IMG/VR virus record: IMGVR_UViG_2939127364_000002
DNA: 42,479 nt
Strand: one strand, 5' to 3'
DNA from: a virus
Lineage: Duplodnaviria; Heunggongvirae; Uroviricota; Caudoviricetes
Under the pieces are notes generated by a model. It searched no databases, had not been told where the DNA came from, and was given only the letters and a program-made list of their open reading frames with translations. The position numbers and the translations under genes are program-made. How positions within the stretch are numbered: position 1 is the stretch's first letter; the number at the start of each line of letters is the position of its first letter. This document shows positions 4,412 through 42,479 of this stretch, one piece after another.

Positions 4412-4774
4412 TTACCTGGCTGTCAGTTGTTTTGATTTCCGGTATCCTGCCGCGTAAATGGCTACGTTTGGAAGACATACACCAGTTTCTGGTTGCTTAT
4501 GTCCAAACTCATTCGCGTACACAATGGCTGCTCTCTCCAGATTGCGTCTGTATTCTTTCTGTTGCCAGATCACGTCCTGTGCCATGAACTTAATTGGCTT
4601 AGCGTCTTCTATGCGCTCAGGCGTTTCGTGAGTACCTTTAGCCTGAATCTGCGCTCTGCTTAGAGTAGGGCGGTGTAATACTTCTGAGCTTGCCGTAATC
4701 TCATTCTGGAGCGCTGCACGACGCTCACGACGACGACCTGATGCTGAGCCATTGAAAGCTGTTCTGCGTGTCAT
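4412..4774 (-). CDS. N: N-like transcription antiterminator
   Basis: Arginine-rich N-terminus ...GRRRERRAALQ... resembles the lambda N arginine-rich motif; first gene left of the oL region; AGGAGG 7 nt upstream of ATG. Confidence 0.65.
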   Translation of the reverse strand: MTRRTAFNGSASGRRRERRAALQNEITASSEVLHRPTLSRAQIQAKGTHETPERIEDAKPIKFMAQDVIWQQKEYRRNLERAAIVYANEFGHKQPETGVCLPNVAIYAAGYRKSKQLTAR

Positions 4775-4877
4775 AGTGACCTCCTGATGAACTTTGGTGA
4801 TGCAATGGCCGGTGCTTATCTTCGGCTTGCCTCAACGGGCTGCATTTCATCGCATCCCAAAGTTCACTTTGGTTATT

Positions 4878-4891
4878 AGGCTTTTCAGCCT
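4878..4891 (-). promoter_or_regulatory. Candidate nutL boxB-like hairpin
   Basis: On the leftward transcript: CTACG then AGGCU-GAAA-AGCCU; same design as the hairpin at 7461..7474. Confidence 0.4.
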
Positions 4892-4961
4892 CGTAGATTC
4901 ATCTCTGAATCGTTGTATATTCACCGCCCTGGTGAGTAGTGCGTCCTGCTGATGGGTAAAC

Positions 4962-5005
4962 TTTATCGAAATGATAAATCAATGGCAATAGCAAAATGAT
5001 AAATT
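4962..5005. promoter_or_regulatory. oL/pL operator region
   Basis: Two copies of ATGATAAAT (4972..4980, 4996..5004) plus TTTATCG at 4962..4968; the same motif recurs at oR. Confidence 0.5.
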
Positions 5006-5181
5006 CCTTTGGTTTTCAAATATCGTATTGATTCTTATGGTGTTTTATTTTGTTGTAGGAATCCGACAGGATAAATAAAGAGATTTGAGGGAGATCTGGA
5101 TTGCGTGGTTTAGTGAGTTGTATCTGTTTATTTTTCAACAAATACAATTGGTTATGTGTTTTTAGGTGGGGGGATCGTGAG

Positions 5182-5209
5182 GCAAAGAAAACCCGGCTCT
5201 GTGGCCGGG
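5182..5209 (-). terminator. Rho-independent terminator closing the cI operon
   Basis: Minus-strand hairpin cccggc-(6 nt loop)-gccggg followed by TTTTCTTTG, directly after the stop at 5218. Confidence 0.6.
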
Positions 5210-5217
5210 TTAATGCG

Positions 5218-5838
5218 TTAATGCTGGGGAGTGATTTTTTTGTTGTCTGTTGGCTGGGTATTTTGTGGCGGCGCTTGCAAAGTGGAAGGCTGTTGCAAAG
5301 GTGCGTGGTCTGACTTTAAAGCTGATACCAGCCCGGGAATCGCAACTATTACAGCGATAATGACACTAAAAATGGCTAATCGTATAGAAATACCCGACTG
5401 AACACCACTAATTGCGGTATTAACCCCTGTTATTTGTCCTTGAATTCCTTCGAATCTCCCATTAATTGCTTTTATATCGCCAGCAGCGCTATCCATCTTT
5501 CCATCGATCTTGGACGATAGAGAGTTTATGGCTGCATTAAGTGATGCAAATTGGACATTAACGCTTTCACGAGATAGAGCCATGTCAGCCCTAATGGAAG
5601 AAGCAATAGACTCCATCTCTGCTTTATTAGCAGCTAAGCGAGCATCAAGTTCCTCTCTGCTGATCGTTCCCACTTCTTCCTCCGTTTGTGGCGGTTTTAT
5701 GTAATTATTTTGCACCTTGGTGGGAGAATTATCAAATTCAGCCTCAAAATAGGAACCGCCAACAACCTTCAACCTCCGGCTTTCAGATATGTTGGTGTCT
5801 TGCTTTCCATGATTATTTAAATTGCTGTCGTCACTCAT
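5218..5838 (-). CDS. Membrane-anchored coiled-coil protein of unknown function (206 aa), distal gene of the cI operon
   Basis: Polar N-terminus, heptad-like central region, single hydrophobic segment IRLAIFSVIIAVIVAIPGLVSAL near the C-terminus, Pro/Gln-rich tail; ATGA overlap with the upstream gene. Confidence 0.6.
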   Translation of the reverse strand: MSDDSNLNNHGKQDTNISESRRLKVVGGSYFEAEFDNSPTKVQNNYIKPPQTEEEVGTISREELDARLAANKAEMESIASSIRADMALSRESVNVQFASLNAAINSLSSKIDGKMDSAAGDIKAINGRFEGIQGQITGVNTAISGVQSGISIRLAIFSVIIAVIVAIPGLVSALKSDHAPLQQPSTLQAPPQNTQPTDNKKITPQH

Positions 5839-6269
5839 AATAGCTCTACGGTGAAAAATGATTCATTTTTATGAAGTTCATTTTTAGGGTCTTCATTATC
5901 CTGCAATATCCCTATAACACTATACAGCCCTTTAGCTGGGACCCTAATTTCTTTCAATGTTACTATTACCTGTCCGCCAACCCCTGTTTCAAAATGGCTA
6001 TCTTTCGTATCGATGAAAAGTGAAACTGATTCCGAAGAGCCGTCAGGGAATTGAATTTCCTCACCTTTTTTTATAATTAGGTGCGCGGGGATTACCATAA
6101 TACCCAAATTATATCTTGAATTTGGTTTCAACCCGATCATACCAACCCTGAAATCAATTGATAGCCGCGCAGGAAATTCATTGCATGTAAAATTAAGCGT
6201 CGGTTGGTTGGGTTCTTCGCTGCTATCAAATGGGGTTATAAAAGATATTCTTTCTAAATTAAGTGCCAT
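5835..6269 (-). CDS. Hypothetical soluble protein (about 144 aa) between cI and the membrane protein
   Basis: Start placed at ATG 6269 (MALNLERISF...) with AGGAG 5 nt upstream; track start 6323 has no good RBS; no family recognised. Confidence 0.55.
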   Translation of the reverse strand: MALNLERISFITPFDSSEEPNQPTLNFTCNEFPARLSIDFRVGMIGLKPNSRYNLGIMVIPAHLIIKKGEEIQFPDGSSESVSLFIDTKDSHFETGVGGQVIVTLKEIRVPAKGLYSVIGILQDNEDPKNELHKNESFFTVELL

Positions 6270-6370
6270 AAATTCTCCTGCATCGCTGTATGCTCTACGA
6301 GCATCTCGGCGACTTATCATCACCCAAACGTCTCTTCAGGCCACTGGCTACCAGCTATGTGACGATGAAG

Positions 6371-7075
6371 TCACGAATTTTTCAGCCACTCCCTTGCCTC
6401 GATGTCATCCAGATGGCGAGATTGCTTCAGAATACCAGCCACATACTCCACCTTTGCTACTTGATGATAAGGCAACGTTATAGGCCTGTGGTCCTGGTTA
6501 ATGCTTGTAAATTGGTATTCTCCATCTCTGTCATAGCCAAGAACCTTAATCATGTTGTGTCCTTCAACGGTTCTGACAAACACCTCATCACCCGGGAATA
6601 CTTTGGTGTTAGGCTCAATGAGTACATATTCTCCTGATTTTATTCTGGGCCACATGCTGTCTCCTTTCACACGAAGACCAAAGGCATCTGGATCATCGCT
6701 ATAAATTTTGAGCCACCCATCGCGCTCTTCGGTCATCTCGATGGCACCATCAACACCAAGAATTGCCTCACCAACCACGCGCACTAACCCTTTTCTTACC
6801 TGACCGACAAAAGTTAAAGAATCTGAGCATGATGCAATTGGTGTTACATCATGCACCAAATCAAGCCACCCATTAGGTAACCCAAGTGCGGCTTCAAATT
6901 TTCTTGCTAGTTTATCCCCTATGTTTCGAGTGCTTTTTTCACCGGAGACTTGCGTGAGTTGAGAAGGGCTAACCCCAAGCTTATCGGCAAAGCTTGCATT
7001 AGTGTTACCCGCGATTTTTTTATGCTCATCTAGCAAAAACGCTAGATTTGATTTGCGAATATCTTTGTTTTCCAT
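6371..7075 (-). CDS. cI: CI-type prophage repressor (HTH plus S24 LexA-like autopeptidase domain)
   Basis: N-terminal HTH ...SFADKLGVSPSQLTQV...; C-terminal ...GDSMWP... serine-lysine dyad signature; divergent from cro across the operator region. Confidence 0.9.
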   Translation of the reverse strand: MENKDIRKSNLAFLLDEHKKIAGNTNASFADKLGVSPSQLTQVSGEKSTRNIGDKLARKFEAALGLPNGWLDLVHDVTPIASCSDSLTFVGQVRKGLVRVVGEAILGVDGAIEMTEERDGWLKIYSDDPDAFGLRVKGDSMWPRIKSGEYVLIEPNTKVFPGDEVFVRTVEGHNMIKVLGYDRDGEYQFTSINQDHRPITLPYHQVAKVEYVAGILKQSRHLDDIEAREWLKNS

Positions 7076-7100
7076 CCCACAATTTTCCCTCTATTTAGCA

Positions 7101-7180
7101 AATGGATAAATACGCAATATGATAAATTTACATTGCGGTTGATTTATCAAAATGGTAAAGTTATTCTGTATGATAAACGG
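7101..7180. promoter_or_regulatory. oR/pRM/pR operator region
   Basis: TGATAAA at 7120..7126 and 7171..7177, inverted TTTATCA at 7143..7149, GGATAAA at 7104..7110; lies between divergent cI and cro. Confidence 0.55.
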
Positions 7181-7188
7181 AGGCACTA

Positions 7189-7422
7189 ATGAGTAATGAA
7201 CTACTACGCTGGCGAAAAGAGGCTTCTAGTGAGGAATGGAAGCGACTCGCCGCATTAGCGAAAACTTCAGTTGGCTATCTTGACCAGATTGCATATGGAT
7301 TTCGAAGAGCTTCCCCTGATAAAGCGAATGCAATCGAAGAAGCTACTCGTAATTTCACGGGTTATAAACCTGTGAAAAAGGAAAACCTGGTGTTCGTATC
7401 GCGTAGAGCATCGGCAGCATAA
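7189..7422 (+). CDS. cro: Cro-like repressor (77 aa)
   Basis: Small basic protein, first rightward gene after the operators; GGAGG 6 nt upstream of ATG. Confidence 0.75.
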   Translation: MSNELLRWRKEASSEEWKRLAALAKTSVGYLDQIAYGFRRASPDKANAIEEATRNFTGYKPVKKENLVFVSRRASAA

Positions 7423-7887: not shown

Positions 7888-8049
7888 ATGACAAAACGTC
7901 GTAAGAAATACCAGGAAAAAGAAGAGATTCGACACCCTGATTCACCTGAGGGATTAGTGGTAGCCGCAGCAAATAACAGGGCGTTCGCAGAGCGCCTTGT
8001 TGGTGTTTACAGACTAGCCAAAGCAGGAGTGAAACATGGGCGTCGTTAA
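7888..8049 (+). CDS. Hypothetical small basic protein (53 aa)
   Basis: MTKRRKKYQEKEEIRHPDSPEGLVVAAANN... with AGGAG 6 nt upstream; not in the track. Confidence 0.3.
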   Translation: MTKRRKKYQEKEEIRHPDSPEGLVVAAANNRAFAERLVGVYRLAKAGVKHGRR

Positions 8050-8098
8050 ATTAGCTGATTACAGGCATAACCCTGTACAACATCAGGAGGCATCCAGT

Positions 8099-8926
8099 AT
8101 GGGGTATGTCTCTATACACCGCCAGTTTATGGACAGCAGGCTCTATAAGGACTCTCAGGCAGTACATCTTTGGCTTCACTTAATCCTCAAGGCTAATCAC
8201 GAATCTACTGTCGTCAATACGGATATCGGTCCGATAACTGTTGATCGCGGTCAGATGATAACTGGACGCCCGTCGCTGGTCAGAGAAACATTCATCCCCG
8301 ACAACAAAGTTCGGAGCTTATTACGGACTTTTGAGTCGAAAGGTATGCTTAATATTTGCTCGATGGGGAAGAAATTTAGCCTGTTTACAATCGTTAAATA
8401 TGACGATTTTCAGGCAAAAAATTGTCCAACGGTTGTCCAACGGTTGTCCAACGCAAACACCAGTAATGGCGCGGCTCTCAGCGGAGATTGTCCAACGGTT
8501 GTCCAACGGTTGTCCATAAACAATAATATAAATAATATCTCTAATACTGACGTATTAGAGAGTGCCACAGCAGACAAAAAGTCTGACAAGAAAAAACCTT
8601 CCGTTAGCTGTCAGGATGTTGTCGATGCTTACCACGAAATCCTTCCTGAAGCGCCAAGAATCCGCGCACTGAATGACAAGCGTAAAAACCAGATCCGAAC
8701 GTTCTGGCGCAAAGCCGGAGTGATAACCCGCCAGCTTGACGGGCATGGGTTCACGATGCAGGACTGGAGAAATTATTTGAGCTACGTTGGCGAAAATTGC
8801 CGATGGATGTTCGAAGAGCGCCCAAACCATCAACGCGGAACCGTCTGGCACAAAAAGGGATTTGATTTCCTGCTTAACGATAATACCTACCTGAAAGTTC
8901 GTGAGGGTGAACACGATGACCGATAA
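8099..8926 (+). CDS. Replication initiator, O-like
   Basis: Start placed at ATG 8099 (MGYVSIHRQF...) with AGGAGG RBS instead of track start 8036; ori-like iterons lie inside the gene; followed by the helicase gene. Confidence 0.7.
   Translation: MGYVSIHRQFMDSRLYKDSQAVHLWLHLILKANHESTVVNTDIGPITVDRGQMITGRPSLVRETFIPDNKVRSLLRTFESKGMLNICSMGKKFSLFTIVKYDDFQAKNCPTVVQRLSNANTSNGAALSGDCPTVVQRLSINNNINNISNTDVLESATADKKSDKKKPSVSCQDVVDAYHEILPEAPRIRALNDKRKNQIRTFWRKAGVITRQLDGHGFTMQDWRNYLSYVGENCRWMFEERPNHQRGTVWHKKGFDFLLNDNTYLKVREGEHDDR
8422..8517. repeat. Replication origin iterons: two clusters of three tandem 11-bp repeats (TTGTCCAACGG)
   Basis: Copies at 8422..8454 and 8488..8517 (last copy partial), then AT-rich stretch 8515..8560; all inside the O-like gene. 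Confidence 0.7.
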
Positions 8927-10352
8927 TTTTTATGCGCCGCCCCATAGCATCGAGGCAGAGCAGGCGGTGATTGGTGGATTGCTTCTGGATGATGACAGCA
9001 GTGAGCGCGTCCAGAAAGTTCTGGCGATGCTGAAGCCCGATTCATTTTACAGCCGACCACACAAAATCCTTTTCGAAGAAATAACCAGAATGCACCGTGA
9101 GCAAAAGCCAGTAGATGGCCTGACGCTTTTCGATGAACTGGAGCGTAAATCGTTAACGGTGTCTGTTGGCGGTTTTGCTTATATCGCTGAGATCGCAAAG
9201 AACACGCCAAGCGCAGCAAACATCGTTGCCTATGCAATGCAGGTTCGTGAAACCGCAATGGAACGCTACGCCATCAACCGCATGACTGAAGCGACGGAAT
9301 TGCTCTATTCCCGCAACGGAATGACTGCAACGCAGAAGTACGAAGCTATTCAGTCGATTTTCACGCAACTGACAGACCATGCAAAAACCGGATCGCGTCG
9401 CGGCCTTCGCTCATTTGGTGAGGTCATGGAAGACTGGGTTAGCGACCTTGAGAAGCGATTTGACCCGTCAGGCGAACAACGAGGAATGAGCACAGGGATC
9501 CCATCGCTGGACAGGATGCTGTCACCGAAAGGCCTGGTGAAAGGCTCTCTGTTTGTCATTGGCGCTCGCCCTAAGATGGGGAAAACGACGCTATACAGCC
9601 AGATGGCAATCAACTGCGCAGTGCATGAGAAAAAGCCCGCTCTGATGTTCAGCCTTGAAATGCCCGGTGACCAGATACTGGAAAAACTGGTAGGACAGAA
9701 GTCAGGTGTTAACCCGAATATTTTTTACCTTCCGGCGACAAATGACGCTGATGACGGCTATCAGGGTGATTACGATGGTGACTTCAACAGGGCGATCGAA
9801 ACAGCCAATCGCTTGAGTGAAATCGACCTGCTTTACATCGACGACACGCCGGGATTATCTCTGGCTCAAATCGTCAGCGAAAGCCGTCGAATCAAGCGAG
9901 AAAAAGGATGTGTTGGCATGATTCTGGTCGATTACCTGACACTAATGACCGCTGAGAAGGCCGATCGCAACGACCTTGCTTACGGCATGATCACCAAAGG
10001 ACTGAAGAACCTTGCCAAAGAGCTTGATTGCGTTGTTGTGCTTCTGACACAGCTTAACCGCGCACTGGAAAGCCGAACCAATAAACGCCCATTACCAAGT
10101 GACTCACGAGATACAGGGCAGATTGAACAGGATTGCGATTATTGGGTGGGGATCCATCGTGAAGGCGCTTTTGATGACAGTGTTCCACCTGGTGAAACCG
10201 AACTAATCCTTCGTCTCAATCGTCATGGCAATACCGGCACGGTGTATTGCATTCAGGCAAATGGCGCTATTTATGACACAGACCAACAGTCTGCTGAAAT
10301 GCGCCGACGTGAACGCGAGGAACCGCAGTCCAAGAAGAAAGGAGGATTCTGA
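8916..10352 (+). CDS. DnaB-type replicative DNA helicase
   Basis: N-terminus ...FYAPPHSIEAEQAVIGGLLLD...; Walker A GARPKMGKTT; start at ATG 8916 (GAGGGTG RBS) overlapping the O-like gene end. Confidence 0.9.
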   Translation: MTDNFYAPPHSIEAEQAVIGGLLLDDDSSERVQKVLAMLKPDSFYSRPHKILFEEITRMHREQKPVDGLTLFDELERKSLTVSVGGFAYIAEIAKNTPSAANIVAYAMQVRETAMERYAINRMTEATELLYSRNGMTATQKYEAIQSIFTQLTDHAKTGSRRGLRSFGEVMEDWVSDLEKRFDPSGEQRGMSTGIPSLDRMLSPKGLVKGSLFVIGARPKMGKTTLYSQMAINCAVHEKKPALMFSLEMPGDQILEKLVGQKSGVNPNIFYLPATNDADDGYQGDYDGDFNRAIETANRLSEIDLLYIDDTPGLSLAQIVSESRRIKREKGCVGMILVDYLTLMTAEKADRNDLAYGMITKGLKNLAKELDCVVVLLTQLNRALESRTNKRPLPSDSRDTGQIEQDCDYWVGIHREGAFDDSVPPGETELILRLNRHGNTGTVYCIQANGAIYDTDQQSAEMRRREREEPQSKKKGGF

Positions 10353-36555: not shown

Positions 36556-37578
36556 ATGGCAGTAAAAATTTCAGGTGTACTGAAAGACGGCACAGGAAAA
36601 CCGGTACAGAACTGCACAATCCAGCTGAAAGCAAAACGTAACAGCACCACGGTGGTGGTGAACACGCTGGCCTCAGAAAATCCGGATGAAGCCGGGCGTT
36701 ACAGCATGGACGTTGAGTACGGTCAGTACAGCGTTATTCTGTTGGTGGAAGGATTCCCGCCGTCACATGCCGGGACCATCACCGTGTATGAAGATTCCCG
36801 ACCCGGTACGCTGAATGATTTTCTCGGTGCCATGACGGAGGATGATGCCCGTCCGGAGGCTCTGCGGCGTTTTGAGGCGATGGTGGAAGAAGTTGCCCGC
36901 CAGGCATCGGAGGCATCGCGGAATGCCACCGCCGCATGGCAGGCATCTGAACAGGCGCAGACATCAGCAGGTCAGGCATCGGAAAGCGCCACGGCAGCAG
37001 TGAATGCAGCCGGAGCGGCAGAAGCATCAGCCACACAGGCAGCCTCATCCGCAGCATCTGCAACCAATGCGGCAAATAGCGCTTCTGCTGCAAATACTGC
37101 AAAAACCGGCGCAGAAGCTGCAAGAGATGCTGCAAATACTGCAAAAACCGGCGCAGAAGCTGCAAGAGATGCTGCAAATACTGCAAAAACCGGCGCAGAA
37201 GCTGCAAGAGATGCAGCTCTGGATGCCCAAACTGCTGCTGAATTAGCTGAAGCAAATGCAAAAATTTCTGAAACAAATGCAGCTGAGAGTAAGCGATTAG
37301 CAGAAGCAGCGATAGATGTGGCAAACTCATCTGCAGGAATATATCAGGACACCACATCTGGTTTGGCGGGAACGGCAACCGGAGGTTATTTTTCGGTGCC
37401 GTCACCCCTGGATGACGAGGTGCTGATTTTGTATCGGAATGACGCCGGAATTGCTACTGAAGTTAAGAGATACCCGAGCGCGGCGGGGGTTGAAAACACG
37501 CGCGTATCGATGATAGGGGTGGCGGCCAGTCTGGTGCTGACACAATCAATTATTGCGGCGCATCACGCGTTTCTATGA
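36556..37578 (+). CDS. stf: Side tail fibre protein, proximal part (lambda Stf N-terminal domain)
   Basis: MAVKISGVLKDGTGKPVQNCTIQLKAKRNSTTVVVNT... matches the lambda Stf N-terminus; contains three perfect 42-bp tandem repeats. Confidence 0.8.
   Translation: MAVKISGVLKDGTGKPVQNCTIQLKAKRNSTTVVVNTLASENPDEAGRYSMDVEYGQYSVILLVEGFPPSHAGTITVYEDSRPGTLNDFLGAMTEDDARPEALRRFEAMVEEVARQASEASRNATAAWQASEQAQTSAGQASESATAAVNAAGAAEASATQAASSAASATNAANSASAANTAKTGAEAARDAANTAKTGAEAARDAANTAKTGAEAARDAALDAQTAAELAEANAKISETNAAESKRLAEAAIDVANSSAGIYQDTTSGLAGTATGGYFSVPSPLDDEVLILYRNDAGIATEVKRYPSAAGVENTRVSMIGVAASLVLTQSIIAAHHAFL
37087..37212 (+). repeat. Three perfect tandem 42-bp repeats inside stf (14-aa unit AANTAKTGAEAARD)
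   Basis: Identical units starting at 37087, 37129 and 37171. Confidence 0.9.
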
Positions 37579-37594
37579 CAATGAGGAAACTGAA

Positions 37595-38914
37595 ATGAGC
37601 GTAGAAACAGAACTAGCAAAACTGACGACAGCAACAGCCGCGCTACTGGAGTCGGTGAATGTAAACAAAGCGGCGCTGGATGCAGCAGTCATAGCGGCAA
37701 ATGCAGCAGAAGCAAAGGCCACCGAACAGGCTGGCGTGTCAACAACCAAAGCGGCCGAGGCAGTAGCCGCCGCGCAAGATGCGTTAAATCGGGCTCAAGC
37801 TGCGTTGGATTCAGCGGCCACGGCAGCAGCGCAAGCTGCCGCAGCCACAGCGGTTGCGACAGCGAATTTAGAAACCGCACTACCAGCCAGCGCATACATT
37901 AAAGATGCTAACCGTTACGCCGTCGAGCGCGCGTCAGGCGGGCGTCAAACCGTGCTGTATGATGATCTAGGCAATCCAAGCGTGATGAATATCATCCCAA
38001 TTTTTCGTTACGAGGATCTCGGCTACAGCGAGGACATGGGAACCGGGGTAGTCAGCTGCTTTGATGTTGGCACTGGCACCAACAAAAGCGAGATTTTTAT
38101 CGGTGCATTTCAGTCATCATTGGTCGGCAGTCGCGCAGTGTCATTGCCGCGTACAGGCCCGGCGACATTCGTAAACTTCGATACAGCAAAAGGCTACTGC
38201 GCAAACAAAGGAGCTGGCTGGCATCTGATGACAATGCACGAGTGGGCAGCAATTTCGCTGTGGTGCATGGCTAATGGCTTCGAGCCGCGCGGAAACACGA
38301 ACTTCGGACGCGCACATGATCGCTACGTAGAGCGAGGTCGCCGCATGGATGGCGGACTGCCGGGCGATACCGCCGGAACACCGCGCGTGCATGCGGGATC
38401 AGGGCCGGATGCGTGGCGGCACAATAATTCGCCGTGGGGAATTAGTGATTTAGTCGGCAACGTATGGGAATGGCTAGACGGATTCAAGTTGCAAGATGGA
38501 CAAATCATTGCCAGTACATTTAACACGCAAGCTGAAGCAAGTTGGGCTGCACAAGCCGCCTATTTCGATGCAACGCAGACCACCGGCGGTGCGCCGCGCC
38601 TGTCTGATGCAGTAGTCAATCGCCTGGGAGCAATCGGCGATAACACGACCGACGGATACTCAGCAAGCGGAAATTTCGACGTTATGGAAAAAACAGGCAC
38701 ATATGTCAGCAATCAGCTGCTGAAGCGTCTATTGGTCGAGCCATCGACAGTGCTGCCGAAAGGTCGCGTATATATGCGAAATTTTGGCGAGCGGCTCCCG
38801 TATCGTGGCGGCGCTTGGGACTACGGCATCAATGCCGGCCTCGCCGCGCTCGCTTGCATCGCTTCGCGCGACTTTGCGCGCACCAGCATCGGGTTCCGCC
38901 TCGCTTTTGCGTGA
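37595..38914 (+). CDS. Distal tail fibre protein with C-terminal FGE-sulfatase (SUMF1)-like domain
   Basis: Ala-rich N-terminal region; C-terminal ...GWHLMTMHEWAAI...GNVWEWLDGF...RGGAWDYG...SIGFRLAFA matches formylglycine-generating-enzyme family motifs; GAGGA RBS before ATG 37595. Confidence 0.65.
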   Translation: MSVETELAKLTTATAALLESVNVNKAALDAAVIAANAAEAKATEQAGVSTTKAAEAVAAAQDALNRAQAALDSAATAAAQAAAATAVATANLETALPASAYIKDANRYAVERASGGRQTVLYDDLGNPSVMNIIPIFRYEDLGYSEDMGTGVVSCFDVGTGTNKSEIFIGAFQSSLVGSRAVSLPRTGPATFVNFDTAKGYCANKGAGWHLMTMHEWAAISLWCMANGFEPRGNTNFGRAHDRYVERGRRMDGGLPGDTAGTPRVHAGSGPDAWRHNNSPWGISDLVGNVWEWLDGFKLQDGQIIASTFNTQAEASWAAQAAYFDATQTTGGAPRLSDAVVNRLGAIGDNTTDGYSASGNFDVMEKTGTYVSNQLLKRLLVEPSTVLPKGRVYMRNFGERLPYRGGAWDYGINAGLAALACIASRDFARTSIGFRLAFA

Positions 38915-40077: not shown

Positions 40078-41235
40078 CTATGACACCTTCTCATCAAGCC
40101 AATCCGCCCACCACTGCATCATTTCTCTGCGCTTATCGAGATACTGAGCATGGTTGTAAATTCCACGTACAGATCCGCCGTTGGCATGTGCCAGTTGCAC
40201 TTCAATGGCGTCGGCAGGCCATTCGTGCTCGTTCATAATCGTGCTGAATTCATGCCTGAATCCGTGACCGCTTTCCAGACCTTCATAGCCGATTTGTTTG
40301 ATCACAAGCAATACCGCGTTCTCGCAGATTGGCTTCTTCTTATCGTTGCGCCCGGCAAAAACAAACTCTGAGACTGGTTTGGTGATTGAGCTTAGCGTAG
40401 TGAGAAGTTCAACCACCTGGTCTGACATCGGGACCACATGAATTTTGCGTCCCTTCATCACACTGGCGTCGATGGTGATAATCCTGTTTTCAAAATCGAC
40501 GTTCTTCCATAGCATGGAACGAAGCTCTTTCGTTCTTAGGGCTGTATAACGTAAAACTTTTGTCGCAATGAGCGATACGATACTTCCTGAAAATGTTGCC
40601 AGTGCTTTGTTGAATGCAGGGATCTGGTCTGCTGGAAGGAACGGGAAGTTCTTCTTGCGGTATCCCTTCATGGCGTCAGCAAGGTCAGGTGCCGGGTTAT
40701 ATTTAGCCCTACCAGTGACAATAGCGTAACGGAAAACCTCGCCGCATCTTCTGCGGGCTTTGTTGGCTCGCTCCATTGCACCGCGATCTTCAAATCTGCG
40801 GATTACTTCCAGCAGTTGCATCGGCTCAATATCCTGAATTTCAAGGCCGCCGATGATGGGTAAAATGTCGTCATCAAACATTTTTGCAAGTTCATTTGCA
40901 TAGCCTACTGACCAGACTTGCTTCTTGTGCTCGTACCATTCCTTGTAAATGGCGCTAAAGGAATTGTTGTTAGACGAAGTCTTTTTCGCTTTTACCGGAT
41001 CGATACCAACCGAGATGTCTTTCCTCGCGGTCCATGCTTTATCCCTTGCCTCCTGCAAAGTCATAAGCGGATATTTTCCGACGGTCAGGATTTTCTCCTT
41101 ACCGTCAATCTTGTAGCGAAGCTGCCATACCTTTTTCCCGGATACAGGAACATAAAGGTACAGGCCATTACCATCGAGAAGGCGGTATGGTTTTTCTTTC
41201 GGCTTTGCTGCTTCAATCTGCTTAACGGTGAGCAT
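40078..41235 (-). CDS. intS: Tyrosine integrase, IntS-like
   Basis: MLTVKQIEAAKPKEKPYRLLDGNGLYLYV... recognised as the CPS-53/KplE1 integrase; start placed at ATG 41235 rather than track start 41271; adjacent to argW. Confidence 0.9.
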   Translation of the reverse strand: MLTVKQIEAAKPKEKPYRLLDGNGLYLYVPVSGKKVWQLRYKIDGKEKILTVGKYPLMTLQEARDKAWTARKDISVGIDPVKAKKTSSNNNSFSAIYKEWYEHKKQVWSVGYANELAKMFDDDILPIIGGLEIQDIEPMQLLEVIRRFEDRGAMERANKARRRCGEVFRYAIVTGRAKYNPAPDLADAMKGYRKKNFPFLPADQIPAFNKALATFSGSIVSLIATKVLRYTALRTKELRSMLWKNVDFENRIITIDASVMKGRKIHVVPMSDQVVELLTTLSSITKPVSEFVFAGRNDKKKPICENAVLLVIKQIGYEGLESGHGFRHEFSTIMNEHEWPADAIEVQLAHANGGSVRGIYNHAQYLDKRREMMQWWADWLDEKVS

Positions 41236-41281
41236 GGGTAAAAATCCGGTGGGTAAAATTATTTTATCCACTTTTTACCCG
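41236..41281. promoter_or_regulatory. Cluster of GGGTAAAA / TTTTACCC 8-mers upstream of intS (candidate recombination-protein binding sites)
   Basis: GGGTAAAA at 41236..41243 and 41251..41258, inverted TTTTACCC at 41273..41280. Confidence 0.35.
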
Positions 41282-41396
41282 TCATGGAGTGCGGCTGTCA
41301 ACGATCTGACGCGAACCATGACGAACCGTGAATATACGGAAGGCTTGATATTCAGGGGATTTTGCGGACTGGTACGGATGGGAGCGAACTGATAAA

Positions 41397-41471
41397 TGGT
41401 GTCCCCTGCAGGAATCGAACCTGCAATTAGCCCTTAGGAGGGGCTCGTTATATCCATTTAACTAAGAGGAC
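41397..41471 (-). tRNA. argW: tRNA-Arg (anticodon CCU)
   Basis: 75-nt cloverleaf GTCCTCTTAGTTAAATGGATATAACGAGCCCCTCCTAAGGGCTAATTGCAGGTTCGATTCCTGCAGGGGACACCA with anticodon CCT and encoded CCA. Confidence 0.9.
41411..41426. repeat. att core copy within the argW T-arm
   Basis: Exact 16-bp match to 221..236. Confidence 0.6.
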
Positions 41472-41546
41472 AATGCGGCATGAGTATACCCGCTAATGGA
41501 GTGCGGGGTAAGTACGCTGCCGCTCGATTGCTTAAACCCTCGCCAT

Positions 41547-42479
41547 TTATGCCGGGTTTTTATAATTTTTCTTAATGTTTTCCGCACGTTCTGCTTTTTG
41601 GCGTGCTTCTGCTTTACGCTTATTGCTCATGTCGTTACGAATCTGTGCATGACTCATTAACGCGAAGATAAAGGTGCCGCCGCAGATGTTCCCCGCTAAA
41701 GTAGGTAGTGCGAAGGGCCAGATGAAATCGCTCCAGTGCAGCGTACCGTTAAACACCAGATAGAGGATTTCAACAGAACCGACCACGATATGGGTGGTGT
41801 CACCCAGGGCAATAAGCCAGGTCATCAATATAATCACCACAATCTTTGCCGCACCCGCTGCAGGAAACATCCAAACCATAGTGGCGATCAGCCAGCCGGA
41901 AATGATCGCGTTGGCAAACATCTCGCTGGGGGTGTTTTTCATCACATCCATGCCGATTTTGACAAATGCATCGCGAGTTTCTTCATTGAAGATAGGCATA
42001 TATTCAAATGCCCACGCCGCAATACCTGTCCCGAGAATATTACCCAGCAGCACGACGCCCCATAACCGTATAAGTAAGCCGACGTTGCTCATTGTCGGTT
42101 TTTGCATGACGGGTAGTACCGCAGTCACGGTATTTTCGGTAAATAATTGCTGGCGGGCCATAATGACGATAATAAAACCAAAGGTATAACCGAGATTCTC
42201 CAGCAAGAAGCTGCCCGGCACACCTTCCAGTTCGACTTGAAATATCCCTTTTGCCAGTAACGAAGCGCCCATCGACAGACCCGCCGCAATGGCTGACCAC
42301 AGTAGCGCCACTGCGTCGCGTTCCAGCTCTTTTTCACCATCCTGGCGGATATGCTCATGAATTGCCATCGCCCGGGAGGGGAGTCGGTCTTCATCTATTT
42401 CTATTTTTTTGCCGCGCTCTTTTTCTTCGCTCTCAACTTCAATTTCGTCGCTGTGTTGATCAATTTTGTCGTTGTCCAT
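41547..42479 (-). CDS. yfdC: Inner-membrane formate/nitrite-transporter-family protein
   Basis: 310-aa ORF MDNDKIDQHSDEIEVESEEKERGKKIEIDEDR... recognised as YfdC, the gene next to argW in E. coli; its start codon is the last 3 bases of the window. Confidence 0.85.
   Translation of the reverse strand: MDNDKIDQHSDEIEVESEEKERGKKIEIDEDRLPSRAMAIHEHIRQDGEKELERDAVALLWSAIAAGLSMGASLLAKGIFQVELEGVPGSFLLENLGYTFGFIIVIMARQQLFTENTVTAVLPVMQKPTMSNVGLLIRLWGVVLLGNILGTGIAAWAFEYMPIFNEETRDAFVKIGMDVMKNTPSEMFANAIISGWLIATMVWMFPAAGAAKIVVIILMTWLIALGDTTHIVVGSVEILYLVFNGTLHWSDFIWPFALPTLAGNICGGTFIFALMSHAQIRNDMSNKRKAEARQKAERAENIKKNYKNPA

Follow-up and report, generated by a model that had tools for sequence, protein, structure and literature searches.

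In prophages, the slot next to the repressor gene has been described as mosaic, and as a variable site of defence genes, among them BstA (PMC8585504, citing Degnan et al. 2007). HigBAC, a validated toxin-antitoxin-chaperone system, sits in the same prophage slot (preprint 10.1101/2024.02.24.581848), and in phage lambda the position is that of rexAB, the genes of an abortive-infection system that excludes T4 rII and other phages with loss of membrane potential. Here we analyzed a stretch of 42,479 nucleotides (nt) from a virus of the class Caudoviricetes (IMG/VR record IMGVR_UViG_2939127364_000002), referred to as the window. The focus is on a two-gene cassette behind the cI repressor gene of this lambda-like prophage, consisting of gene A, which encodes a soluble protein of 144 amino acids (aa), and gene B, which encodes a 206-aa membrane protein. 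Like BstA and HigBAC, the cassette lies downstream of a prophage repressor, with which it presumably shares a promoter, in a locus that varies among related prophages.

It is plausible that the cassette is a phage-exclusion system, and we regard it as a candidate, with the defence role read from its genomic context. The reading that we favor, with a probability of roughly 0.4, is a Rex-like phage-exclusion unit, in which an oligomeric, tail-anchored effector in the membrane is gated by a partner from the cytoplasm. It is the best supported because of the precedent of the slot, the layout of one soluble and one membrane gene, the arms-race-like swapping of partners and B heads, and weak leads to membrane toxins and XhlA. 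A preliminary description of this DNA had proposed an undescribed defence or exclusion module. Position, layout and mobility agree with that proposal; for the defence role itself, there was no match in PADLOC and no characterized homolog in the 95 clusters of the B family.

The features of the locus are as follows, in window coordinates:
7098–7161, operator-like repeats on the oR side, three copies of a ~15-nt ATGATAAAT-type motif between cI and cro (repeat families D1/D2, inverted repeats I7/I22; function assigned from position).
6371–7075, minus strand, cI repressor, with helix-turn-helix and Peptidase_S24 domains (Pfam E = 3.8e-16), PHROG 4 'transcriptional repressor'.
6270–6370, minus strand, intergenic leader between cI and A, ~100 nt, without a T-run terminator and with AGGAG 6 nt before the A start.
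5216–6317, cassette-specific DNA (the mobile unit), 1.1 kb, delimited by blastn piece boundaries and megablast.
5835–6269, minus strand, gene A, 144 aa, soluble, predicted all-beta sandwich, PHROG 5893.
5218–5838, minus strand, gene B, 206 aa, coiled coil and one membrane helix, PHROG 5820.
5180–5211, minus strand, intrinsic terminator closing cI-A-B, from a terminator scan and fold energy; the counterpart of Timm as annotated in phage HK542.
4964–5005, operator-like repeats on the oL/pL side, at the left edge of the immunity region (repeat families D1–D3; inverted repeat I1 pairs with the oR side).
4412–4774, N antiterminator gene (N_peptide Pfam match, E = 3.5e-20).

The N gene and the flanking operator-like repeats place the cassette in the interval between cI and pL/N, which is the rexAB position. 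The preliminary description had reported two genes co-oriented with cI in this slot, a soluble protein of about 144 aa, and a 206-aa protein with a coiled coil and a single C-terminal membrane anchor. The coordinates, repeats and N gene bear out the first point, the ATG start at 6269 and the lack of a hydrophobic segment the second, and hydropathy and AlphaFold helices the third. The ATGA overlap of the two genes, also reported there, lies at 5835–5838; it joins the TGA stop of A to the ATG start of B, and the two genes are translationally coupled. The strong terminator that had been placed at 5182–5209 is present, a few bases off, at 5180–5211. Its stem (5190–5211) has 8 pairs, including 6 G-C pairs, followed by a T run to ~5180, and folding yields −16.9 kcal/mol (z = −4.0), which none of 200 shuffles matched. 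The mechanical open reading frame (ORF) for A runs from a GTG start over 5835–6323 (162 aa); the ATG at 6269 was taken as the start because all aligned homologs start there and because of the AGGAG upstream.

The repressor is of the immunity type found in H-19B, BP-4795 and Stx1 phages (DNA 98–99% identical to the cI of BP-4795 and AU5Stx1), and cI is presumed to be the first gene of the pRM/pRE transcript. The co-orientation of A and B with cI, together with the lack of a terminator between cI and A, suggests that A and B are made in the lysogen through read-through from the repressor promoter. A consensus scan for a promoter inside the cassette gave fewer sites than shuffled controls, and none is claimed. 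The leader fold is mildly structured (z = −2.1), and no Rfam RNA family matched within or near the cassette.

The cassette is a discrete mobile accessory unit that moves between immunity types. Phages of the H-19B, BP-4795 and AU5Stx1 group share both flanks with the window, with identities by blastn of 92–94% over 4846–5215 (the pL/oL region and terminator) and 98–99% over 6318–7300 (cI and cro), but lack 5216–6317. The boundaries lie at 5215/5216 and 6317/6318, so that part of the leader (6270–6317) travels with the cassette. Phages HK542 and HK244 are 98.8–98.9% identical to the window over 5091–6350, and carry the cassette behind a lambda-type cI, in place of rexAB. Their immunity-region records list the hypothetical proteins HK542c104 and HK542c105, and then 'Timm'. 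The slot of BP-4795 holds three other hypothetical genes, ORF20–22, and that of AU5Stx1 holds ~330 bp with only one 47-aa ORF. Four traits of a moron were found: presence/absence polymorphism between near-identical phages, clean boundaries, its own terminator, and atypical composition (41.4% GC for the cassette vs 50.3% for the window).

The cassette is present in 51 of 5,426 complete E. coli genomes (~1%), always as one chromosomal copy. HK542 and HK244 are the only ones of 50,697 phage records with a B gene. Two observations concern the contents of the slot. The BP-4795 genes ORF20–22 overlap and encode uncharacterized proteins of 134, 218 and 95 aa, with the same arrangement in H-19B and many Stx1 and Stx2 phages (locus L008, 1620–2961). 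In 11 of the 51 genomes, the cI is of the window type, and a DUF3024 gene has been added between it and A. This 113-aa gene (locus L002, 5241–5582, in E. coli 2015C-4498; also in the ten others) makes a three-gene unit, and its junction alters the first residues of the GTG-extended frame of A from MMIS to MMDD or MMDG.

The product of gene B is a tail-anchored protein of the inner membrane that contains a long coiled coil built of heptads. Its four parts, all on the minus strand, are:
5662–5838, residues 1–59, head, variable and predicted disordered, with a predicted local distance difference test score (pLDDT) <50.
5383–5661, residues 60–152, coiled coil with unbroken heptads, pLDDT 79–90 over residues 61–110.
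5314–5382, residues 153–175, transmembrane helix, conserved in all homologs in the alignment.
5218–5313, residues 176–206 and the stop codon, tail, short, Pro/Gln-rich and presumed periplasmic.

Hydropathy analysis gave exactly one hydrophobic segment (residues 154–172, Kyte–Doolittle 2.71), and the AlphaFold2 model contains a long helix (61–139) followed by a second one (150–174). The coiled coil opens with a nearly invariant S/T-R-E-E-L cap motif and closes in Gly-rich heptads, and homologs in the alignment differ by indels of exactly seven residues. The lack of a signal peptide and the acidic character of the N-terminal 150 residues suggest that the N-terminus is cytoplasmic. A tail motif, P-I-I-I-Q-V-P, is conserved in many B homologs and lost in the version of the window. 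The tail is dispensable in distant homologs (loci L061, L064 and L066), which stop 3–9 residues past the membrane helix.

Homologs of A and B gave dN (nonsynonymous divergence) values of 0.12–0.28 with saturated synonymous sites (dN/dS ~0.1–0.2 where computable). The modest dN relative to saturated synonymous sites indicates that both are real genes under purifying selection. B is broken, with A intact, in 4 of the 51 cassette-bearing E. coli genomes. In three of them (EM18-18-42, locus L057, 2819–3928; also CFSAN064035 and 22AR0322) IS1 is inserted at about codon 116, and in the fourth (2013C-3492, locus L058, 2539–2853) there is an in-frame deletion of 98 codons. The truncated form, of 128 aa, is frequent in the database (cluster P0002, 53 contigs).

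Examination of 51 loci with full-length B, including the window, showed that a same-strand ORF of 92–162 aa precedes B in every case, with an end that lies anywhere from 49 nt into B to 19 nt short of the B start. These partners fall into three families, unrelated by sequence and profile:
The A family, 143–154 aa.
A second family of ~92–101 aa, with no Pfam match.
A third family of 112–135 aa, with a CxxC...CxxC pattern, PHROG 4293.

The possibility that the ~97-aa partner of the second family is a shortened A was rejected (hhalign probability 0.2%). This partner may resemble DUF3467/SecB-like proteins, but Pfam gave no match. Between B proteins with different partner types, the head (residues 1–59) is 4–13% identical, whereas the core (60–177) is 39–83% identical; for the window B and one CxxC-partnered B, the values are 7% and 79%. 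The contrast suggests that the partner gene and the 5' end of B are exchanged as one unit. The preliminary description had read A and B as one unit. The pair is real, but comparison of the sequences indicates that B alone is the conserved core, with a head that co-varies with the partner, since B also pairs with the two other families. The joint exchange of partner and head is our main argument that the partner docks on the B head, and it suggests that a conserved effector in the membrane is fitted with a cytoplasmic partner that can be swapped.

In Cedecea, in Proteus and on several metagenomic contigs, distant homologs of A were found directly behind an S24 repressor, each followed by an overlapping gene for a tail-anchored coiled-coil protein of 108–190 aa. 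An exception is an A-like gene with a short tail-anchored gene on the same strand, inside a myovirus prophage tail/baseplate cluster. Pairs of B with the ~97-aa partner also occur elsewhere: in two IMG/VR prophage contigs they lie antisense between tail-assembly genes (locus L046, 3552–4555; locus L049, 3485–4495), with genes for a lipoprotein and a small membrane protein as neighbors, and in Yersinia enterocolitica a pair lies beside dinI and near Mu-like baseplate genes (locus L006, 4695–5699). Occurrence outside immunity regions suggests that the pair behaves as a self-contained unit. All 95 source-named clusters of the B family come from Enterobacterales, including Morganellaceae, and none has a functional name. 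A scan of species-representative genomes for B gave one locus only, in Xenorhabdus; the scan of viral contigs was the productive one. In a Proteus mirabilis prophage, a SieB-family exclusion gene lies ~0.7 kb past an A-B-like pair, on the opposite strand (locus L067, 5234–5788), so that such a pair and a recognized exclusion gene share one immunity-region neighborhood.

For A, the prediction is a beta-sandwich protein of the cytoplasm. Hydropathy analysis gave no hydrophobic segment (maximum Kyte–Doolittle 19-residue mean 1.01), and AlphaFold2, with an alignment of 9 sequences, gave a seven-strand all-beta sandwich (pLDDT 67.8, predicted template-modeling score 0.62). Foldseek searches with this model returned generic Ig-like, carbohydrate-binding-module and RhoGDI-type folds (template-modeling score ≤0.6), together with uncharacterized phage proteins. 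No Pfam, NCBIfam or PADLOC match was found for A, and PHROG 5893, to which it belongs, is of unknown function. A profile search of 1.84 billion representatives gave 23 matches, so the family is very small; ~15 of these are stand-alone proteins of 136–153 aa, and the remainder are Ig-repeat surface proteins. A profile match of A to TRPM7 in the PDB was dismissed as chance.

A, B, the alternative partners and distant relatives were compared with Pfam, NCBIfam, PHROGs and PADLOC, which gave no functional match and only sub-threshold coiled-coil matches. In these databases and the PDB, neither A nor B matched RexAB, known exclusion proteins, or structural or housekeeping proteins; homology of the last two kinds, named in the preliminary description as an argument against a defence module, was looked for in Pfam, PHROGs, NCBIfam and PDB without success. 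Neither protein is a member of a PHROG annotated as superinfection exclusion, and PHROG 5820, that of B, is of unknown function. The Pfam gathering cut-offs relevant to B are 33.5 bits for CCDC90-like/DUF1640 (PF07798), 34.7 for XhlA (PF10779) and 38 for Baculo_PEP_C. Against PF07798 the window protein scored 12.3 bits and its best relatives 25.5–31.1 bits, all below the cut-off, and B-family members from Proteus and Providencia are named 'DUF1640 domain-containing' by NCBI. B itself did not match XhlA PF10779; short relatives of B scored 10.7 and 25.4 bits, and some are labeled XhlA in UniRef. The match of B to Baculo_PEP_C was sub-threshold (21 bits).

Sequence-profile searches of the PDB with B gave weak matches, mostly to trimeric coiled coils (haemagglutinin HA2, sigma-1) and to pore-forming toxins. 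Local matches of 58–90 residues (E 0.003–0.014) were obtained with SmhB and AhlB (E ~0.01) and with MakE (E 0.003). In these, the Gly-rich helix and membrane helix of B align with the hydrophobic head of the toxin (GINTAISGIQSGIS...LAIFGVIIAVVVALPGL vs GINAAIDGAIAGIVVGGLLVIGGAIVTAIGAVAGL). There was no significant full-length homology of B to the body of ClyA-family helical-bundle toxins.

For the Rex-like unit, we propose the following mechanism. The cassette would be a horizontally exchanged moron, read through from the repressor promoter in the lysogen. A would reside in the cytoplasm, bound to the N-terminal head of B, and B would assemble in parallel, probably as a trimer like DUF1640-type proteins. 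On contact of A, or of an alternative partner, with some component of the incoming phage, this oligomer would change state. The Gly-rich and membrane helices of B may then compromise the inner membrane, through depolarization or premature lysis, and the infection would abort. Which phages are sensed would depend on the swappable partner. A bolder version is possible but doubtful: the cassette may represent a new modular family of prophage defences, in which one trimeric DUF1640-like tail-anchored effector, B, is served by interchangeable sensors from at least three unrelated families that dock on matching heads, so that a sensor swap retargets a membrane 'kill switch'.

Several points weigh against a Rex-like exclusion unit. 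The search of PADLOC-DB 2.0 with A, B and the alternative partners gave only coiled-coil noise, to LmuB and PbeC (E 1e-4 or weaker). RexB is a four-helix polytopic channel, whereas B is single-pass and mostly cytoplasmic. The similarities of B to toxins, XhlA and DUF1640 are all sub-threshold, and could reflect the composition of coiled coils and membrane helices. The model of A is of medium confidence (pLDDT 68), and its contact with B is suggested by co-variation. The four disruptions of B amount to about two independent events, which fit a cost of carriage or ordinary decay, and are too few to argue for toxicity.

Among the alternatives, a role in lysogenic conversion unrelated to phages is unlikely. 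B would then be a DUF1640/MCUR1-like scaffold or an ElaB/YqjD-like stress protein that alters the envelope or stress physiology of the host, with A as its partner in the cytoplasm. DUF1640/CCDC90-like proteins are the closest sequence family of B (relatives 31.1 vs the cut-off of 33.5 bits), its architecture is tail-anchored, and the characterized eukaryotic DUF1640 members are membrane scaffolds. However, in the loci examined the cassette occurs only in prophage contexts and never in the core chromosome, its ~1% frequency in complete E. coli genomes is low, and the fast swapping of partners and heads resembles arms-race diversification rather than housekeeping. Non-abortive superinfection exclusion, in which B blocks genome entry or an early membrane step, A is a stabilizer or chaperone, and the host survives, has a lower probability still. 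Small membrane proteins are typical of prophage exclusion, B lies in the inner membrane and is presumably made in the lysogen, and the conserved tail motif P-I-I-I-Q-V-P would be on the periplasmic side. Yet only ~30 residues of B would face the periplasm, the motif is lost in the window B and the whole tail is absent from distant homologs, neither protein resembles the PHROGs annotated as superinfection exclusion, and co-variation of the head with the partner, both on the cytoplasmic side, speaks for an input from the cytoplasm.

A role in the life cycle of the phage itself is about as improbable as entry exclusion. B would be an XhlA-like lysis accessory, or would modulate induction or lysis timing in the manner of Hex downstream of cI in phage 434. 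The XhlA labels and the 25.4-bit score of short B relatives favor such a role, as does the presence of an A-like gene with a short tail-anchored gene on the same strand inside some myovirus tail/baseplate clusters. Against it, the cassette of the window lies in the presumed lysogenic transcript, apart from the lysis genes, and is dispensable, since the slot is empty or otherwise filled in near-identical phages; HK542 and H-19B-type phages, moreover, presumably carry complete lysis modules of their own. We consider very unlikely an addiction pair, in which B is a membrane toxin neutralized by A and the prophage is thereby stabilized, an arrangement that could coexist with abortive defence. Translational coupling of a soluble gene to a membrane gene behind it, the disruption of B but never of A in 4 of 51 E. 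coli genomes, and the toxin-antitoxin-chaperone system in the same slot of other prophages would fit. However, neither protein resembles toxin or antitoxin families (Pfam, NCBIfam, PADLOC), A, at 144 aa and with a beta-sandwich fold, is unlike typical labile antitoxins, and the B disruptions are few and partly clonal.

Elsewhere in the window, a tyrosine integrase gene (40078–41271), tRNA-Arg(CCT) (41397–41471) and a host gene of the formate/nitrite-transporter family (41547–42479) follow one another, which places a prophage-chromosome junction at 40078–42479. The integrase may belong to a neighboring or remnant element, as it adjoins the tail-fibre end and not the early-left recombination genes at the left end of the window. 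A 453-aa ORF (37553–38914), just past the gene for a tail-fibre N-terminal domain (36550–37578), contains a weak FGE-sulfatase-like domain (E = 1.6e-6), unusual for a protein of the tail-fibre region. A 296-aa ORF (8036–8926), upstream of a DnaB-like helicase gene (8901–10352), contains the peptide CPTVVQRLSN/CPTVVQRLSI twice (8330–8590), and overlapping ORFs in other frames repeat there as well (DNRWT...). Repetition in several frames points to direct DNA repeats inside a putative replication-initiator gene, probably origin iterons.

The cassette had been called uncharacterized in the preliminary description. This holds for its function; the sequence itself is not new, as the DNA has been public since 2007 in the GenBank records of HK542 and HK244, and the proteins are in PHROGs 5820 and 5893. 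Searches of the literature by accession, PHROG identifier or phage name gave no functional study of the A and B proteins and no paper that mentions them by name. Mentions of HK542 concern OLD sensitivity only, and a HepS paper, which was also considered, is unrelated to the cassette. What appears to be undescribed is the function of the cassette and the modular organization of partner, head and core.

If the cassette is protective, it would be a compact, ~1.1-kb addition to prophage-encoded defences, of unusual design, with a single-pass coiled-coil membrane protein whose head and partner are exchanged together. It would offer a natural experiment on the rewiring of sensing specificity and a first functional handle on bacterial DUF1640/XhlA-like tail-anchored coiled coils, and would strengthen the case for systematic mining of the repressor-adjacent slot of lambdoid phages for defence genes. 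Its presence in HK542, a cultured and tractable phage that infects E. coli K-12, makes the cassette easy to test. If no phenotype were seen, it would stay among the conserved pairs of phage genes to which no function is assigned.

Comparison with known proteins shows that B is closest by sequence, below threshold, to two groups of tail-anchored coiled coils, the DUF1640/CCDC90-like and the XhlA-like proteins. DUF1640/CCDC90-like proteins (MCUR1 and CCDC90B in mitochondria, and prokaryotic members) likewise consist of an N-terminal head, a coiled-coil stalk and a C-terminal membrane helix. In DUF1640 proteins a beta-layer motif caps the start of the stalk (PMC4786415), to which the S/T-R-E-E-L cap motif at the start of the B stalk may be compared. 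The head of B differs from theirs: it is short, and disorder is predicted for it in place of a folded domain. XhlA-type proteins are, like B, encoded by phages, with a C-terminal membrane helix behind a coiled coil, and the shortest partners of A-family genes (91–122 aa) are built in this way, some of them labeled XhlA. However, B is twice as long, and belongs to a presumed lysogenic operon and not to a lysis cassette. The local match of B to the ClyA-family toxins SmhB, AhlB and MakE covers their membrane-inserting head and the helix leading into it, but B lacks the helical-bundle body of ~350 residues and is not secreted.

Of the systems found next to prophage repressors, BstA acts at phage DNA replication sites and HigBAC is a toxin-antitoxin-chaperone system; the proteins of the cassette, and its proposed mechanism, are unrelated to either. 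The sequences of A and B are also unrelated to RexAB (Pfam, NCBIfam, PADLOC), and A is about half the size of RexA. Judged by homology and membrane topology, the cassette is not a member of the RexAB family. It is RexAB-like in position and layout: as in lambda, two genes, one for a soluble and one for a membrane protein, lie on the cI strand between cI and a Timm terminator, ahead of pL and N, in a presumably shared transcript.

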